Source of the DNA: Escherichia coli
Lineage (GTDB): Bacteria; Pseudomonadota; Gammaproteobacteria; Enterobacterales; Enterobacteriaceae
Strand: one strand, 5' to 3'
DNA: 64,000 bases
Assembly: GCF_017348835.2 (NCBI RefSeq)
Contig: NZ_CP071375.1
Shown here piece after piece: positions 13,957 through 33,616 of this stretch; the stretch's first letter is position 1; each line of letters opens with the position of its first letter. The notes under the pieces were generated by a model. That model searched no databases. It was not told where the DNA came from and worked only from the letters and a program-made list of their open reading frames with translations. The position numbers and the translations under genes were made by a program.

Positions 13957-16842
13957 TTAAAAGCTGAAGCGATATCCTCCGTTGACTTGCTTCTGATCAA
14001 AGAGGTTACCCTGCGTGTAATCCGCTTCGAGGTAGAATGTGTGCTGTTTGTTATACTGTGCACTGACTCCCACGCCGTTATTCCAGCCATTACCTTTGAA
14101 ACTGTACTTCTCCCGGGAGTTGTTCAACAGATATTCTGTATCCCCTGAAAACTCGCGGATAGCGCCAGTCTTCACATACATATTCAGCTGGCTGTTGCCT
14201 GCGGTGATGTCATATCCCAGTATCATACTGGCACGCCCCAGCAGCGATTCGTAGTGATTCAGATGTATATTGAGGCCATTACTCGCCTTCATAGCCATCT
14301 CATTCTGGTGGCTGTATGTGAGCTGGGTTTGCGGCTCTATATAGAACCCATAACCAGTAGGGGTCAGGTTGAATCTCTGCCCGGCTTCCAGGGAGATGCT
14401 CAATCCATTCGCAGTGCCGTTGGCGTTAACGCCGTTGTTCTGACTGTCCCGTACGTGGAAACTATTTTTCTGGCGCGATGCTTTTACAACGAGATCGCTG
14501 TAAAAACCGCTGTGTGCCATGTAACTGGCGTACATTCCCATATAGTCTGAACGTGCGGTACCGTCGCCTCCGCTATAGTCCGGCGATGCATGTGTTGAGC
14601 CAATATACAGACCGACATACAACGGCATTTCATCAGAGAGACGTTTATCCCCACCAAACTGGATACCGCTGTAACCCATGTCAAAGCCGCTCAGTTTGCC
14701 ACTGGCGAAGGAGTCCAGGCTTCCCCCATAACTGCGCAGCCAGATATTACCGTCTTTACTCTGATTTCGCAGGTCACCCATCCGTTGCATCAGCGTACGG
14801 TTTTCAACATAGTTCAATAAGTAACCAACATTGAGATAATTGCCGCCAGCATCTGCGGTCGTGGTGGGTTTAGGTGTGGGCGTGGGGGTAGGCGTAGGAT
14901 CGGGTTCAGGCGTAGGATCGGGGTTGACTATGGGAGGCTGAGCGGGAGCCGGCGTTGGTTCAGGATTTGGAGTCGGCTCCGGAATTGTCCCGGAAGCATA
15001 AAGCTCCCAGTTAGTGCCATTTTTACGCACATCGTACAGATATCCTCCCAACTCAACCTGAGAAGACGCGCTGAACGAGGCCGCGCCGTCAGTGGTTTTT
15101 ACCACTGTCAGAACTTCATTTCCCGTTGTGGCTTCGCTGCCCTGGTTACGGATAGCCAATACATGATTACCAGCACTACTCCCGCTGATATTCAATAAAT
15201 CCCCTTTATTATTAACGCCATTACCCTCGCCAACAACATCAGCACGCATAATAAAGGTACTGTTACCGCTCAGGTTCTCTACGTTTAATGTGGTAAATGT
15301 GCCGGCAGTTGATGCGTGGCTGGCAAAATCGACAGTTGAATGGCTCAGCGCCAGCGTGTCGAGATTAGAATTACTTGTTACGTTCCAGACGCTGTTATTC
15401 ATTGCAACGTCCAGTTTCCCGTCATTGACATTATCGCTAAGGGAGGAACCTGTCCAAGCCGACCCAGGGTGCATATCCAGATTGATTAGCCCACCTTTGG
15501 AGAGAACGCTACCGTTGATAAGCATACGACCCGAAGCGTTGATGCGGCTGGCGGCATAACCATCGTCATGTTGCGTTGCGATGGCCATCTGGTCGGGTGT
15601 ACTCATATCAATGACCAGATCGCTCGTGAGGTCGATCTGGCTGTTGGTCATGGCATAAATCCCCCTGGCTCCTGCCGCGCCGGTGATAGCCAAACTGTCT
15701 CCGGTTATTCTACCGCCGCTGAGCGCCCACAAACCCAGCGCCAGACTGCCATTACGATCAACCGTAATATCGGTATTTTGCATGTTGATAACAGCCGTTG
15801 CCGTCTGGGCCGAGGCACCATAAGAACCGCCGGAAAAGATGCTGTTTCGTTGCGCTGCCGTGCCAGAAAAATTGATTGTCGCGTCTGAACCACTGGCTAC
15901 GAGACCACCGCCCTGCGCGGAAGAAATATGGCTATCTGCACCGATAGTGGTTGTACCACCACGAACTTCGACGCCATTGGCCGCGGCTCCAGTTACATCA
16001 ACAGTGAGTGCATTCGCGCTAACCTGGCCAAAGCTCCAGAGGCCGTGTGCATTATCGCCACTGGTTTTAATGGAACTGTTTGTTCCGAGATCGACAACAG
16101 AGTTTTTCTGTACGTTTATCCCCATGGCGCTGTAACCCTGAACATCGATTGTCAGGTCTGTCGCCGTAAAACGCGCAGCACCATTGGCGTTATTGCCGTT
16201 GAGACCACCGATATAAACACCTGTACTTCCATCGGTCTTGATTTTACTTCCGCTTCCAAGATCGACACTGGTGCCATAGTCATTGATGGTTAGGCCTATA
16301 CCGTTCGAGTTTTCAATGGTGAATTGAGTGGCTGTTAGTGTTGAGCTATGCCCAATAATGATGCCGTCATCGTTACTCTTAATGGTGCTGCCTGTGCCTA
16401 AGTCAGCATGGGTATAGTCACCAATTAAATTAATGCCGATGGCAGAGGTTTGACCAACAACATCTACTGTGAGTCGGTTAGCTGTCAGGGAGCTGTTTTT
16501 GCCCTGAATAATGATTCCTTTTGCATATCCAGAGGCGTCGTTGACATTGACGGTGACATCATTACCCAGGTTGATATTGCCAGGCGTGTTTCCTGCTGGG
16601 GTCATTACACCATAGAGGTTTCCTGATGGATCGGCGGTATCTCCTGTAATTCTGTCACCATCATTAATAGTAATATTGGTGCCATATTGACTTCCTGTAT
16701 CAGCAGCTATCAGCAGGGGGGAAAAGATAATTGCATTCAAACCAATAGCGCCAAATTTTATCAGTTGAATTGAGGGCGAACGGATTTTTAATTCAGCGAG
16801 ACGATCGGCTTTGGTATTCCCATTGTGTTGTTTGATGCCCAT
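13957..16842 (-). CDS. ycgV: AIDA-like autotransporter adhesin
   Basis: 961 aa; Gly/Thr/Asn-rich passenger repeats, Pro/Thr-rich linker PEPTPNPEPTPAPAQPP...TPTPTPTPKP, C-terminal beta-barrel ending ...GYRFSF. Confidence 0.9.
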   Translation of the reverse strand: MGIKQHNGNTKADRLAELKIRSPSIQLIKFGAIGLNAIIFSPLLIAADTGSQYGTNITINDGDRITGDTADPSGNLYGVMTPAGNTPGNINLGNDVTVNVNDASGYAKGIIIQGKNSSLTANRLTVDVVGQTSAIGINLIGDYTHADLGTGSTIKSNDDGIIIGHSSTLTATQFTIENSNGIGLTINDYGTSVDLGSGSKIKTDGSTGVYIGGLNGNNANGAARFTATDLTIDVQGYSAMGINVQKNSVVDLGTNSSIKTSGDNAHGLWSFGQVSANALTVDVTGAAANGVEVRGGTTTIGADSHISSAQGGGLVASGSDATINFSGTAAQRNSIFSGGSYGASAQTATAVINMQNTDITVDRNGSLALGLWALSGGRITGDSLAITGAAGARGIYAMTNSQIDLTSDLVIDMSTPDQMAIATQHDDGYAASRINASGRMLINGSVLSKGGLINLDMHPGSAWTGSSLSDNVNDGKLDVAMNNSVWNVTSNSNLDTLALSHSTVDFASHASTAGTFTTLNVENLSGNSTFIMRADVVGEGNGVNNKGDLLNISGSSAGNHVLAIRNQGSEATTGNEVLTVVKTTDGAASFSASSQVELGGYLYDVRKNGTNWELYASGTIPEPTPNPEPTPAPAQPPIVNPDPTPEPDPTPTPTPTPKPTTTADAGGNYLNVGYLLNYVENRTLMQRMGDLRNQSKDGNIWLRSYGGSLDSFASGKLSGFDMGYSGIQFGGDKRLSDEMPLYVGLYIGSTHASPDYSGGDGTARSDYMGMYASYMAHSGFYSDLVVKASRQKNSFHVRDSQNNGVNANGTANGLSISLEAGQRFNLTPTGYGFYIEPQTQLTYSHQNEMAMKASNGLNIHLNHYESLLGRASMILGYDITAGNSQLNMYVKTGAIREFSGDTEYLLNNSREKYSFKGNGWNNGVGVSAQYNKQHTFYLEADYTQGNLFDQKQVNGGYRFSF

Positions 16843-17012
16843 ACCACTCCTATATAGTACCCAGGCTATGGGTCTATGGATTTTGTCATTTTGTTTAAGT
16901 CAATGAATAATATCCTCTTATCATCATGATATTTGTATGGTGCAATCATGATGAGCTTTGAACCGCCCCGGAAATCCTGGAGACTAAACTCCCTGAGAAA
17001 GAGGTAAACAGG

Positions 17013-17339
17013 ATGACTAAAAATACTCGTTTTTCCCCCGAAGTCCGTCAGCGGGCGATTCGTATGGTTCTGGAAAGTCAGGATGAATATGACTCACAGT
17101 GGGCGGCAATTTGTTCCATTGCCCCAAAGATTGGCTGTACGCCGGAGACTCTGCGTGTCTGGGTTCGCCAGCATGAGCGGGATACCGGGAGTGGTGATGG
17201 TGGACTCACCACCGCTGAACGTCAGCGTCTGAAAGAGCTGGAACGTGAAAATCGTGAACTGCGCCGCAGTAACGATATCCTTCGCCAGGCTTCCGCTTAT
17301 TTTGCGAAGGCGGAGTTCGACCGCCTCTGGAAAAAATAA
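17013..17339 (+). CDS. IS3-family transposase OrfA (HTH/leucine zipper)
   Basis: 108 aa [22 protein letters not shown]... recalled as IS629 OrfA; ends in A-rich slippery run ggaaaaaataa. Confidence 0.88.
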
Positions 17340-18226
17340 TGCCACTGCTGGATAAGCTGCGTGAGCAGTACGGGGTCGGACCGGTATGCAGCGAACTGCA
17401 TATTGCCCCGTCAACGTATTACCATTGTCAGCAACAGCGACATCATCCGGATAAACGCAGTGCCCGTGCGCAGCACGATGACTGGCTGAAGAAAGAGATA
17501 CAGCGCGTATACGATGAAAATCACCAGGTATACGGTGTGCGTAAAGTCTGGCGTCAGTTGTTACGGGAAGGTATCAGAGTGGCCAGATGCACTGTGGCAC
17601 GTCTCATGGCAGTTATGGGACTTGCCGGTGTTCTCCGGGGTAAAAAGGTCCGCACTACCGTCAGCCGGAAAGCCGTTGCCGCATGCGACCGCGTAAACCG
17701 TCAGTTCGTGGCAGAACGTCCAGACCAGTTGTGGGTGGCTGATTTTACCTGGGTAAGCACATGGCAGGGCTTCGTTTATGTGGCGTTCATCATTGATGTG
17801 TTCGCCGGATACATCGTGGGATGGCAGGTCTCATCATCCATGGAAACAACATTCGTGCTGGATGCACTGGAGCAGGCGTTGTGGGCCCGTCGGCCGTCCG
17901 GCACAATCCATCACAGTGATAAAGGTTCTCAGTATGTATCGCTGGCCTACACGCAGCGGCTTAAGGAAGCCGGATTACTGGCATCAACAGGGAGTACTGG
18001 CGACTCGTATGACAACGCGATGGCTGAGAGCATCAATGGTCTTTACAAAGCGGAGGTAATACACCGTAAGAGCTGGAAAAACCGTGCAGAAGTGGAACTG
18101 GCCACACTCACGTGGGTGGACTGGTATAACAATCGACGATTGCTGGAAAGGCTGGGCCATATTCCTCCGGCAGAAGCAGAAAAAGCTTATTATGCTTCCA
18201 TCGGAAATAATGATCTGGCAGCCTGA
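17339..18226 (+). CDS. IS3-family transposase OrfB (DDE catalytic domain), expressed as OrfAB by -1 frameshift
   Basis: 295 aa [15 protein letters not shown]... in -1 frame relative to OrfA; DDE-type motifs (HSDKGSQY, DNAMAES). Confidence 0.88.
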   Translation: MPLLDKLREQYGVGPVCSELHIAPSTYYHCQQQRHHPDKRSARAQHDDWLKKEIQRVYDENHQVYGVRKVWRQLLREGIRVARCTVARLMAVMGLAGVLRGKKVRTTVSRKAVAACDRVNRQFVAERPDQLWVADFTWVSTWQGFVYVAFIIDVFAGYIVGWQVSSSMETTFVLDALEQALWARRPSGTIHHSDKGSQYVSLAYTQRLKEAGLLASTGSTGDSYDNAMAESINGLYKAEVIHRKSWKNRAEVELATLTWVDWYNNRRLLERLGHIPPAEAEKAYYASIGNNDLAA

Positions 18227-18911
18227 GTTCACAGATAAAACACTCTCCAGGAAACCCGGGGCGGTTCACTTCTCTGAGAATAATTCTCTATTACCGGGCA
18301 AAATCAGGAACACAGGAATTAATATATATTTAACATCCCCCTTACAAAGGTGAGTTTATATCGAGTTATTCCCTAAGTTGTCGTTACTTATTCCAATTCG
18401 TTACTATGAATATGGCAAAAATATTACAACAAACAGCGGTTAAAAAATTTGGTGAAGATTTTTGTAATAATCCTAATTAGTTATGGGATTTTCGCTTGAT
18501 GTATCTGCATAACAAAAACAATATGCGCCATTTTTGCATTACTAATAAGAAAAAGCAAAAAACATCGATATTCATTTTTGGTCAATGGGTTTTCTGGCCT
18601 ATCGTTGTTATTGTGCTACTGGTTATCATTTTCATCTTGCCAGGATCGCACGTAATCACGTTATTCGGGGACTTTATCTGCGGGATATTACCCTTCAGGT
18701 AAGTCCTTTTCTCGCCAGCATATTGGAGCGTGATCAATATTGATCAGCTGTGAAGGGGGCTGATGTGTAGTGGAACAAAAACTGACGTTATATCACTGCT
18801 AATGAGATATCCGTCATCTGAACACTTATGTCTTTAATTATTTTGGTGGTCACTGTAGGCAATAAGCACAAAAGTGTAGGATGTTACAAGAATGATTAGG
18901 ACTCGGTGAAA

Positions 18912-18937
18912 TGAAAAATCCACGCAATTGCGTGGAT
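18912..18937 (-). terminator. rho-independent terminator downstream of ychF
   Basis: Hairpin atccacgc-aatt-gcgtggat (18918-18936) followed on minus strand by T-run. Confidence 0.6.
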
Positions 18938-18996
18938 TTTATATACTTTTGCGCTCTTCATGAGATTTAGCGAAACCTCATGAGACAATAAATTAA

Positions 18997-20088
18997 TTAG
19001 ACGTTGAAAAGGAAGTTCATCACATCGCCATCTTTCACGATGTAATCTTTACCTTCTGCACGCATTTTGCCTGCTTCTTTCGCGCCTTGTTCACCTTTGT
19101 AAGTGATGAAATCTTCAAACGAGATGGTTTGTGCACGGATAAAGCCTTTTTCAAAATCAGTATGGATTTTGCCCGCTGCCTGCGGCGCGGTTGCTCCAAC
19201 CGGAATGGTCCATGCACGCACTTCTTTCACCCCAGCGGTGAAGTAAGTTTGCAGGTTCAGCAGCTTATAACCGGCACGGATCACACGGTTCAGGCCCGGC
19301 TCTTCCAGCCCAAGCTCCTGCATAAACTCGTCACGTTCTTCGTCGTCCAGTTCGGCAATGTCTGCTTCAACAGCAGCACAAACCGGAACCACAACAGAAC
19401 CTTCTTTCGCCGCGATTTCACGCACCTGGTCAAGATATGGGTTGTTTTCAAAACCGTCTTCGTTGACGTTGGCGATGTACATTGTTGGTTTCAGCGTCAG
19501 GAAGCTCAGGTAACGAATAGCCGCTTTCTCTTCAGCGCTTAAATCCAGCGCGCGCAGCATACCTGCGTTTTCCAGCTGGGGCAGGCATTTTTCCAGGACC
19601 GCCAGCTCAGCTTTCGCGTCTTTATCGCCACCTTTGGCTTTCTTCTGTACGCGATGAATCGCACGTTCGCAGGTGTCGAGGTCTGCCAGCGCCAGTTCGG
19701 TGTTGATAACTTCAATATCGTCAGCCGGGTTAACTTTGCCGGAAACGTGAATGATGTTGTCATTTTCAAAGCAGCGAACAACGTGACCGATCGCTTCGGT
19801 TTCACGGATGTTAGTCAGGAACTGGTTACCCAGACCTTCGCCTTTCGATGCGCCTTTTACCAGACCGGCGATATCGACAAATTCCATGGTCGTGGGAAGC
19901 GTACGCTGCGGTTTTACGATTTCAGCCAGTTGATCCAGGCGAGGGTCAGGCATTGGTACGACGCCTGTGTTCGGCTCAATGGTGCAGAATGGAAAGTTGG
20001 CCGCTTCAATACCGGCTTTGGTCAGCGCGTTGAACAGGGTAGATTTCCCGACGTTGGGCAAACCGACGATACCGCATTTGAATCCCAT
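18997..20088 (-). CDS. ychF: ribosome-binding ATPase YchF (Obg-family)
   Basis: 363 aa [23 protein letters not shown]... G1 motif and TGS domain; matches YchF. Confidence 0.95.
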
Positions 20089-31360: not shown

Positions 31361-31895
31361 ACAAAAAAGGCCGCAGGCTGTTACCCTGCGGCCGGTTTCG
31401 GGCGCATATTGCCATCACGGCAGCCTGACGCCCGTTTTCGCCTTACTTCCGGTTACGCCACCAGCCGACAATCGCTGCGGTAATAATTCCCGCCAGGATC
31501 GGTGCTGCCAGGTCGTGCCAGAAAATCATGGCAAACTGCGCGAGCGTCATATAGCCGCCTTGTTGTAATGACAACATTTTGCGGCTATTCTTGAATTGTT
31601 GATGGTTCAAGATTAGCCCCCGTTCTGTTGTCAGGTTTTACCTCTCAACGTGCGGGGGTTTTCTCTTTCCAGCAACCAATGCCACCAGGGATAAAGCCCC
31701 CGCAACATTGCGCCTCACCGGATAACGCCGGCTTGGTGTGGATACTACGACTCAATTCATCTTCACTTCATCCCTGAAATGTTTGCAATGAAGAGTGCAT
31801 TCCGGTTTTTCAACAGCTGTTACAGTCGTTTCATGAGTGCTCTGGATGATGCTTCCAGCTCGGGTTGCCAATATTTACTTGTGGAAGTGATAAAG
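31361..31895 (-). repeat. LDR (long direct repeat) copy 1, ldr/rdl type I toxin-antitoxin unit (~535 bp)
   Basis: About 535-bp unit repeated in tandem (copy 2 begins 31896) with few mismatches; contains 35-aa Ldr ORF. Confidence 0.85.
31443..31550 (-). CDS. ldr: Ldr-family type I toxin peptide (35 aa)
   Basis: Minus-strand translation MTLAQFAMIFWHDLAAPILAGIITAAIVGWWRNRK; too short for ORF track; matches Ldr toxin family. Confidence 0.85.
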   Translation of the reverse strand: MTLAQFAMIFWHDLAAPILAGIITAAIVGWWRNRK

Positions 31896-32190
31896 ACAAA
31901 AATGGCCGCAGGCTGTTACCCCTGCGGCCGGTTTCGGGCGCATATTGCCATCACGGCAGCCTGACGCCCGTTTTCACCTTACTTCCGGTTACGCCACCAG
32001 CCGACAATCGCTGCGGTAATAATTCCCGCCAGGATCGGTGCCGCCAGGTCGTGCCAGAAAGTCATGGCAAACTGCGCGAGCGTCATATAGCCGCCTTGTT
32101 GTAATGACAACATTTTGCGGCTATTCTTGAAGTGTCTGGTTTCAAGATTAGCCCCCGTTCTGTTGTCAGGTTTTACCTCTCAACGTGCGG
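31896..32190 (-). repeat. LDR copy 2, proximal part (interrupted by IS4)
   Basis: Near-identical to 31361-31655; continues after IS4 at 33617. Confidence 0.85.
31979..32086 (-). CDS. ldr: Ldr-family type I toxin peptide (35 aa), copy 2
   Basis: Minus-strand translation MTLAQFAMTFWHDLAAPILAGIITAAIVGWWRNRK (I9T relative to copy 1). Confidence 0.85.
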   Translation of the reverse strand: MTLAQFAMTFWHDLAAPILAGIITAAIVGWWRNRK

Positions 32191-33616
32191 TAATGCCAGT
32201 CAGTTAAGCAACTGACTGGCTCTTTTTCGGGGCTGTGGGGTATTTCCAGGGCCTCTCCTTTACCACTCTCGGGAAGGCCCTTTCCCTTCTTGTCGGTAAT
32301 TTCACAAGTTGTCCCATACTTGCAAGATCGCGCATCAGCTCCGGTATACGTCCCGGTGAAGCGCCCTGCAATGTCATCAGCATTCTCATCACCATTCCGC
32401 ATGATTCTGAGAAGCTCAGTTGATTTGGCCAGTAACCTTTCAGATGTTCCGCCATTTTAATCATCTGATATCTCACCAGATTATAAGCCAGTAAGACACC
32501 CCACAGCTCTTGCTCCACAAGCTCAGGCTTTTTACTTCTCAGCGTCAGCCTGCTCAGTTGCATCGTCTGTTTTATCTCCCTGTATCCCAGTTCGATTTCC
32601 CAGCGATGACTGTACAGATCCGCCATTTCTCCTCCGGGGAAGCGCATGGCGTCCGTCATCGACGTCAGCAGATGGCAGACTTTTCCTTTGCGCGTCACGG
32701 TCAGCAGGCGGGCTGTCACCTCATTTCCCAGTCCCGGCCACTTTTTTCGTGCCTGCGGGCTGGTTTTCAGCTTCACCAGATGATCGCCTTTACCCAGTTT
32801 TCTGATCTCTTCATATTGCGCTCCCTTTCTGAGAGGGATCATCCAGTGGCGGTGTTCTCCCGCCAGGCTCCAGGCATTTAACAATCCCAGTGAGTAATAA
32901 CCTTTATCCATTAACGTCAGAGTGTTATCGCCGGTTTGTTCTATAAGTTGCTCAGCAAGCTCATTTTCGCTGTTCTTCATCGTGCCGAAGGCTGCAGCCG
33001 TCAGCAGATGGCTGGTCAGTTCCATCTGGCAGACCATTTTGACCTGCGGGTAGAGCGCCGGGGTCCCGGCATGTGTCTGGCGAGGGAAGGCTGCATCGTT
33101 CTCTGGTGTATCCGGTGTGCGCCAGAACACACCATCGATGGCCAGCAGGGTCAGGCCGCACCAGTGCGGATGCGGCGTGGCGTTATGCCAGAGCTGCGCT
33201 GTTTTCGTGAACACGCGGCGGACAGCCTCACTTCCCAGGCGCTGGCGGGCCTGAATAACAGCACTGGGGGCAACGAAGGTGCGATTGCCCGGCAGCATGA
33301 TGTCCAGGCGATTCACAATCTGGTGAAGAGGTTCTTTACGCTCAAGCGCCATGCCAACAATACACCAGACCATCATTTCGAGGGGAAGACGGCGCTTGCG
33401 TAGCGTTACAGTACCTGATTCGGCAAGGCAACGAGAGATGAGTTCGGGGTCGAGGTAATCTCCCAGAGAAGTCAGTGGGTTACGCAGAGAATCGTAACGG
33501 GATACCAGATCAAGAGCCTGTCCAATGTGCATAAAAAAATCCGGAAACGAGTGAGCGTTTCCGGATTCTTACACAGCCACTGGATCGGTCAACTGATCCT
33601 TAACTGATCGGCATTA
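32191..33616 (-). mobile_element. IS4-like insertion sequence, copy 1 (1426 bp)
   Basis: 18-bp imperfect terminal inverted repeats taatgccagtcagttaag / cttaactgatcggcatta; single 442-aa transposase; flanked by 12-bp direct repeats ctcaacgtgcgg (32179-32190 and 33617-33628). Confidence 0.9.
32204..33532 (-). CDS. IS4-family transposase (DDE)
   Basis: 442 aa [33 protein letters not shown]...; length and sequence consistent with IS4 transposase. Confidence 0.88.

Follow-up and report, generated by a model that had tools for sequence, protein, structure and literature searches.

The stretch of Escherichia coli DNA analysed here (64,000 nucleotides, called the window in what follows) carries an insertion sequence between the autotransporter adhesin gene ycgV and ychF. 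PGAP annotates the local gene order as dhaR, ycgV (minus strand), an IS3 family transposase (plus strand), ychF (minus strand) and pth (minus strand), and the host DNA around the element comprises the following features:

13957-16842, minus strand: ycgV, autotransporter adhesin gene, intact, 961 aa.
16843-16958, minus strand: ycgV upstream DNA still attached to the gene, 116 bp, i.e., 116 of the 126 bp of the YbdO EMSA probe.
16956-16958, no strand: left copy of the target-site duplication, CTT, with a single CTT in the empty site of relatives.
18269-18271, no strand: right copy of the target-site duplication, CTT, with a single CTT in the empty site of relatives.
18313-18612, minus strand: region equivalent to the promoter island of K-12, located via the K-12 alignment, starting 42 bp past the right end of the element.
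18997-20088, minus strand: ychF, with its 3' end facing the element.

The start of ycgV at position 16842 on the minus strand, as given in a preliminary description of this DNA, was borne out by our analysis. The insertion point is 116 bp upstream of the ycgV ATG and the transposase genes are oriented away from ycgV; the earlier placement of the element in the ycgV-ychF spacer stands. However, this AT-rich spacer (35.9% GC) is located 3' of ychF, which is encoded on the minus strand, and the earlier wording of an AT-rich region "upstream of ychF" holds only for the plus strand.

When searched with a 2.5-kb query around the element, the locus was found with 100% identity and in one piece in E. 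coli PE164 (NZ_CP114128.1), and window coordinates correspond to coordinates of the PE164 record minus 2,216,842. PE164 is an O108:H9 hybrid aEPEC/ExPEC strain whose genome was obtained by Unicycler hybrid assembly of short and long reads (PMC12233904); the strain was isolated in Nanjing from a piglet that had bloody diarrhoea. None of the terms insertion sequence, IS629, transposase or ycgV occurs in the PE164 genome paper (PMC12233904).

The IS629-type element itself spans 1310 bp (positions 16959-18268), begins with TGAACCGCCCCGG, finishes with CCGGGGCGGTTCA, and is composed as follows:

16959-16983, plus strand: left terminal inverted repeat (IRL), TGAACCGCCCCGGAAATCCTGGAGA; 25 nt, complementarity with the right arm 88%.
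17013-17339, plus strand: orfA, 108 aa, helix-turn-helix DNA-binding protein (Pfam HTH_Tnp_1, E 2.9e-12).
17339-18226, plus strand: orfB, 295 aa, DDE transposase catalytic domain, -1 frame (Pfam rve, E 1.7e-26).
18244-18268, plus strand: right terminal inverted repeat (IRR), ending in TCTCCAGGAAACCCGGGGCGGTTCA.

Flank and element meet at GATGAGCTT followed by TGAACCGCC on the left and at GGCGGTTCA followed by CTTCTCTGAG on the right. The preliminary description had proposed a 1310-bp IS3-family element of the IS629 type with exactly these ends, and boundaries, domains and inverted repeats all agree with it. It had also called both reading frames intact: internal stops are absent from orfA and orfB, and the lengths of the open reading frames are equal in all six copies compared (this element and five others). 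Neither of the two kinds of damage that it had singled out to look for, disrupted inverted repeats or a frameshifted orfB, was found, since the terminal repeats match at 22 of 25 positions (TGAACC.../...GGTTCA) and orfB is full-length. Further copies of the element were not found within the 64-kb window.

Both the overall layout and the details of the two proteins are those of the IS3 family. The length falls within the range of about 1.2-1.55 kb, the inverted repeats are of the TG...CA type, orfA (HTH) and orfB (rve) overlap in frames 0 and -1, and the target-site duplication (CTT) is as short as is usual in the family (3-4 bp). OrfB, which also matches HTH_21 (Pfam), contains the catalytic triad D135, D194 and E230 with D-58-D-35-E spacing, i.e., a DD(35)E motif, and the K/R expected at E+7 is a lysine here. 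A slippery motif and a downstream RNA structure for the production of OrfAB are likewise predicted from the sequence. At the level of IS629, the lengths of OrfA (108 aa) and OrfB (about 295-296 aa) fit together with the one-base overlap of the TAATG/TGATG type; in this copy, the orfA stop codon TAA (17337-17339) overlaps the orfB ATG (17339-17341) by one base (TAATG). The PGAP annotation on the plus strand reads "IS3 family transposase, programmed frameshift" plus "AL1L pseudoknot". The kind of element is thus already known: this is an ordinary intact IS629 copy and not novel in kind, with exact matches to OrfA, OrfB and OrfAB already present on many contigs in a public protein collection, where the OrfA protein is found identically on 483 contigs.

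Production of the fused transposase would depend on a frameshift signal that was examined in some detail with respect to the following features:

17294-17410, plus strand: ALIL (apical loop-internal loop) frameshift-stimulating pseudoknot (Rfam RF01497, 120.3 bits).
17300-17303, plus strand: U_UU.U tetramer, candidate -1 shift site, in frame-0 codons TAT (17298-17300) and TTT (17301-17303).
17309-17325, plus strand: ALIL stem-loop 1, 17 nt, GGCGG-AGUUCGA-CCGCC.
17329-17341, plus strand: A-rich window ggaaaaaataatg with the A6 run (17331-17336), the orfA stop TAA and the orfB ATG; contains A_AA.A.
17371-17410, plus strand: ALIL stem-loop 2 (Rfam ALIL match).

The ALIL match covers model positions 1-117 of 117, far above the gathering score of 50 for RF01497, and the same pseudoknot feature is annotated by PGAP. 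A plain thermodynamic fold also yields both stems. Six pairs, one of them G-U, can form between the loop of stem-loop 1 (17315-17320) and the internal loop of stem-loop 2 (17376-17381), and this predicted pairing is the defining apical loop-internal loop contact.

Where ribosomes would slip relative to this structure is suggested by several lines of evidence. The orfB frame is open from position 17273, and the gap from the U_UU.U tetramer to the downstream ALIL stem 1 is 5 nt, while a stimulatory structure should begin 4-10 nt after the shift motif (PMC4066793). In contrast, ALIL stem 1 is located upstream of the A6 run, which has no stem at stimulatory spacing. Of the tetramers that IS1/IS3-family elements use, U_UU.U furthermore belongs to the three most prone to shifting and ranks above A_AA.A (PMC4066793), and in the Rfam ALIL consensus UAUUUUG is conserved but the A-run is not. 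For exactly this element, the NCBI "IS3 family transposase" is a 404-aa fusion with the junction ...ASAYF/CEGG..., of which AYF/CEGG corresponds to the upstream U_UU.U site. In a collection of 15 billion proteins, only an OrfAB with the U_UU.U junction is present and the version joined at the A6 run (...LWKK/IMPLL...) is absent, and we therefore rejected the A6 run as the annotated shift site. Based on ALIL geometry, the NCBI fusion protein and the motif data, U_UU.U at 17300-17303 is probably the programmed -1 site, and the A6 run with A_AA.A near the orfA stop could be at most a minor secondary one. The predicted frameshift signal is intact whichever site is used. The preliminary description was therefore right that the A-rich string at 17329-17341 is preserved along with an intact predicted signal, but that string is probably not where the shift occurs, given the upstream position of ALIL stem 1 and the fusion junction at U_UU.U. 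This corrects a common shortcut, i.e., that the A-run at the orfA/orfB overlap of IS629-type elements is the frameshift site, which it probably is not.

The ALIL pseudoknot was defined in IS3411, an IS629 isoform, by Mazauric et al. 2008, according to passages in PMC5009743 and PMC4066793. Like IS3411, the PE164 element has a full-length Rfam ALIL with a 17-nt stem-loop 1 located 5 nt past a shift-prone tetramer, and it differs by the one G-U pair of its kissing interaction. When 20 IS3-family elements were ordered by the size of their stimulatory structures, ranging from 17 to 131 nt, IS3411 came first (PMC4066793), which we read as its structure being the smallest. None of IS3411, IS629 and IS1203 is named in the supplements to PMC4066793.

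The preliminary description had called for an alignment to IS629 and IS1203, which we ran on annotated copies. All compared copies are 1310 bp long and align without gaps, except for those of pCP301. The closest relatives are the copy on pO103 (NC_013354.1, O103:H2 strain 12009) with 7 differences and that of the O26 strain RM8426 with 11. These O26/O103 copies are 99.2-99.5% identical to the PE164 copy and agree with it in the lengths of the open reading frames, the inverted repeats and the ALIL; they differ only by point differences (0-2 aa in OrfA, 2-3 aa in OrfB) and in that the insertion site in PE164 is new. The orfA stop is TAA in PE164 and pO103 and TGA in the O26, O157 and other copies.

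All other types are considerably more distant. The O157:H7 copy, named "IS1203 family" by PGAP where the PE164 copy is only labelled "IS3 family", carries 52 substitutions (96.0% identity). It corresponds to the O157 IS1203/IS1203v elements, to which the PE164 copy is equal in length, organisation, terminal 13 bp and 3-bp duplications while 2 aa differ in OrfA and 9 in OrfB. A third type, found in JNEC-KY204 and UTME-3, shows 51-53 differences. The Shigella flexneri pCP301 copies annotated "IS629 ORF1/ORF2" (IS629 sub-type II, with a shortened ORF2 annotation) share family, group and architecture with the PE164 copy and differ at 54-60 positions plus one gap, i.e., at 95.1-95.6% identity in end-to-end alignment. 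With 7-11 differences for the O26/O103 copies, both the Shigella IS629 prototype type and the O157 "IS1203" type were ruled out as the type of the PE164 copy.

In ISfinder, isoforms share at least 90% nucleotide identity, here over the full 1310 bp, and the PE164 copy lies within this range of the IS629-named annotated copies of pCP301 (95.1-95.6%). Three IS629 sub-types that differ by 4-5% have been described, namely I (IS1203-like, O157), II (Shigella-like, O55) and III (O26-like) (Rump et al. 2011, PMC3271280). On sequence comparison, the PE164 copy is an IS629 isoform of the O26/O103 type and fits sub-type III, as assigned via annotated copies and the description in PMC3271280 and not via the prototypes X51586 (IS629), U06468 (IS1203) and M19532 (IS3411). 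The proposed IS629-type identity was thus confirmed, with the copy belonging to a third isoform beside the two named for alignment.

To reconstruct the empty site, we removed the element and one CTT from the locus and used the resulting 800-nt sequence as a query. The pig strain F2_81 agrees with this reconstruction at all 800 nt (100% identity), and in 4,088 of the 5,426 complete E. coli genomes the site runs through without interruption. The filled site, in contrast, is present in PE164 only (1 of 5,426); three other genomes reach 80% coverage in the filled-site search, but only by virtue of an IS629-type element inside ycgV. The flanks in PE164 and F2_81 are collinear with 99.96-99.97% identity over 30.5 kb, and the two flank alignments against F2_81 overlap by exactly 3 bases, CTT. 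A match of 3 bp alone has a chance of 1/64. Nevertheless, the single CTT in the empty site of F2_81 and the 4,088 genomes together with the CTT overlap of the flanks mark this sequence as a true target-site duplication, in line with the flanking repeat that the preliminary description had noted and that is found at 16956-16958 and 18269-18271 but only once in F2_81. Three other copies in other strains likewise carry 3-bp duplications. The PE164 chromosome contains a second, 100% identical copy at 1,854,261 and about 32 matching places for the element, compared with 26-27 in F2_81. We conclude that the insertion is genuine and recent and, among complete genomes, confined to this strain, as judged from the empty site in relatives, the identity of the flanks and the identical second copy. 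Its recency had been proposed before and fits well with a single filled genome in 5,426 and a near-identical relative in which the site is empty. That the copy is likely still active, as also suggested earlier, is a reasonable reading of its intactness and of the identical copies.

How the element would have moved can be outlined from knowledge of the IS3 family, applied to the anatomy established here. One mRNA would be translated into both orfA and orfB, and a minority of ribosomes would slip by -1, most likely at U_UU.U (17300-17303) and stimulated by the ALIL, to give a 404-aa OrfAB DDE transposase. OrfAB would then bind the TG...CA inverted repeats and drive copy-out-paste-in transposition through a circular intermediate with 3-bp duplications, i.e., it would join one end to the other to form a circle with abutted ends that would integrate by a 3-bp staggered cut. 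In the IS3 family, OrfA by itself acts as a DNA-binding protein that tempers activity. IS1203/IS1203v of O157:H7 is the isoform that has been studied experimentally, and its OrfAB arises by a -1 frameshift. Excision of this isoform varies with the level of OrfAB and is increased by the IS-excision enhancer (bioRxiv 10.1101/2023.06.07.543989; PMC9397093). The identical copy elsewhere in the PE164 genome lends indirect support to a copy-out-paste-in origin of the insertion.

We are highly confident that the locus contains a complete and undamaged IS629 copy of the O26/O103 isoform that recently transposed into the ycgV-ychF spacer and duplicated CTT. Precise excision of IS629/IS1203v promoted by the IS-excision enhancer IEE is documented (bioRxiv 10.1101/2023.06.07.543989; PMC9397093) and would restore one CTT, which makes it conceivable that the site was occupied ancestrally and that the relatives lost the element by precise excision, e.g., through IEE. 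However, the site is empty in 4,088 genomes across the species and filled in just one, the identical copy elsewhere in PE164 fits a recent copy-out-paste-in event, and gain is strongly favoured by parsimony; we consider an ancestral element highly improbable. The same low probability applies to an artefact in which the assembler misplaced a repeat. About 32 near-identical and hard-to-place matches in a Unicycler hybrid assembly would provide the opportunity for such an error, but a misjoin would not yield base-exact junctions at which 3 bp that are single in the empty site are perfectly duplicated, and the flanks are otherwise collinear with F2_81. As a recent transposition, the insertion provides a clean strain-private marker for typing of the PE164 lineage in the style of IS-printing, and the 32 versus 26-27 matching places point to a probable ongoing expansion of the IS629 isoform of the O26/O103 type in a porcine O108:H9 lineage.

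The insertion point also bears on the regulation of ycgV. A 126-bp "ycgV promoter" fragment binds the repressor YbdO by EMSA in work on an APEC strain (PMC11681634), and the primers for this probe map to 16843-16968 of the empty site with the distal primer site split by the element. The 116 bp that are retained contain a 10-bp perfect inverted repeat (16921-16930 / 16945-16954). Further upstream, the K-12 ycgV spacer holds one of 78 "promoter islands" (U00096.2 1255333, 301 bp; PMC3661553 Table 1), a class that is reported to be H-NS-bound and largely silent (PMC3661553); the 777-bp offset of K-12 coordinates used to map it was verified on a sigma-54 motif. In a consensus promoter scan of the minus strand, sigma-70-like sites were absent both from the 116 bp that stayed with ycgV and from the left end of the element in the outward direction. 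Across 16700-19100, our promoter/terminator scan returned one plus-strand promoter-like site, which is fewer than in shuffled sequences, and weak terminator-like hairpins.

The 116 bp nearest to the ycgV start have stayed with the gene, and the remaining AT-rich upstream region has been moved 1.3 kb away. Judged by these positions, most of the putative upstream regulatory DNA of ycgV, including the promoter island counterpart, is now cut off from the gene, and the altered promoter context that had been suggested for ycgV is a reasonable reading of what the insertion could do. Unchanged or reduced expression of ycgV are the most likely outcomes, and activation seems less likely than silencing or a neutral effect.

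A functionally significant insertion could either activate a cryptic YcgV adhesin, by cutting off the island or through an outward promoter, or abolish ycgV transcription by parting the gene from its true promoter. Its position, with 116 bp to the ycgV ATG on one side and 42 bp to the counterpart of the K-12 island on the other, would suit such an effect, as would a peak for sigma-32 holoenzyme detected by SELEX within the distal ycgV spacer (PMC5493296) and the binding of the proximal 126-bp fragment by YbdO, which represses ycgV in the APEC strain (PMC11681634). However, the consensus scan detected no promoter-like site at the left end of the element reading toward ycgV, the PE164 paper (PMC12233904) mentions neither ycgV nor IS elements, and outright inactivation of ycgV by IS629-type elements in several lineages suggests a gene that is dispensable rather than selected for activation, so that we regard functional significance as unlikely. 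Even less probable, though worth spelling out, is a scenario in which uncoupling from the promoter island with retention of the YbdO-binding 116 bp would change surface expression of YcgV and contribute to the adhesion/biofilm phenotype of PE164, reversibly so if this strain carries the IS-excision enhancer. The significance of the insertion is limited to that of a strain marker and a possible regulatory variant of ycgV.

Independent IS629-type insertions interrupt ycgV itself in O157:H7 F3113, JNEC-KY204 and UTME-3 and, as it appears, in two O145:H28 strains as well, and these repeated events in other lineages suggest that ycgV is readily lost. An orientation bias of such insertions within ycgV was considered and rejected as a search artefact, with pieces joined only on one strand. 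In PE164, the insertion point falls between the proximal fragment bound by YbdO and the promoter island, which makes PE164 and F2_81 a natural pair for locating the transcription start of ycgV.

The DNA upstream of ycgV contains a perfect inverted repeat with 10-bp arms, TCATCATGAT-N14-ATCATGATGA, at positions 16921-16930 and 16945-16954. This repeat ends 1 bp short of the CTT target, and the element has inserted close beside it. The alignment with K-12 shows that the repeat is also kept there, and it is located within the YbdO-binding probe, the 126-bp ycgV promoter fragment (PMC11681634). It may represent an operator.

Among the copies of the element that we compared (PE164, pO103, O26, O157, JNEC-KY204, and UTME-3), the only variation within the overlap of orfA and orfB concerns the orfA stop codon (17337-17339): orfA terminates with TAA in PE164 and pO103, and with TGA in O26, O157, JNEC-KY204, and UTME-3. 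In other strains, IS629-type insertions lie inside the ycgV coding sequence itself, with coordinates given on the respective ycgV locus:

L002 1504-2813, O157:H7 F3113, 3-bp duplication cta
L003 1501-2810, JNEC-KY204, 3-bp duplication ggc
L004 1502-2811, UTME-3, 3-bp duplication gat

These insertions occupy three different positions and are independent events, and ycgV appears to be interrupted by an IS also in two O145:H28 strains, H20 and H21. A seemingly common orientation of the IS629-type insertions in ycgV was an artefact of how the search joined pieces.

A break in the alignment with K-12 at ca. 18646-18710 revealed that the ycgV-ychF spacer is about 63 bp longer in PE164, and this extra DNA is bordered by direct repeats of 12 nt that match each other imperfectly (TCTTGCCAGGAT / TCTCGCCAGCAT). 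Both this indel and the promoter-island counterpart (18313-18612, minus strand) are overlapped by an unannotated reading frame:

18496-18702, plus strand, ORF of 68 aa in the ycgV-ychF spacer

Its product would include a strongly hydrophobic segment, IFIFGQWVFWPIVVIVLLVIIFILPG, though the ORF is probably not a gene.

Elsewhere in the window, two IS4-type transposase genes are found, the second of them in the PGAP annotation of PE164 and the first accompanied by rdlD matches:

31599-31664 and 32134-32194, rdlD matches
32204-33532, minus strand, IS4 transposase gene between the Ldr/Rdl toxin-antitoxin repeat and chaA
56955-58283, minus strand, IS4-family transposase gene between tdk and adhE

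The related pig strain F2_81 lacks the IS4 near chaA, as seen from an alignment gap spanning 31833-33616, and has one Ldr toxin gene near chaA compared to two in PE164. Immediately beyond the region common to F2_81 and the window, cvrA of F2_81 (1-262 of its locus, L005) carries a truncated annotation, "partial in the middle of a contig", which may reflect a further strain-specific IS insertion.
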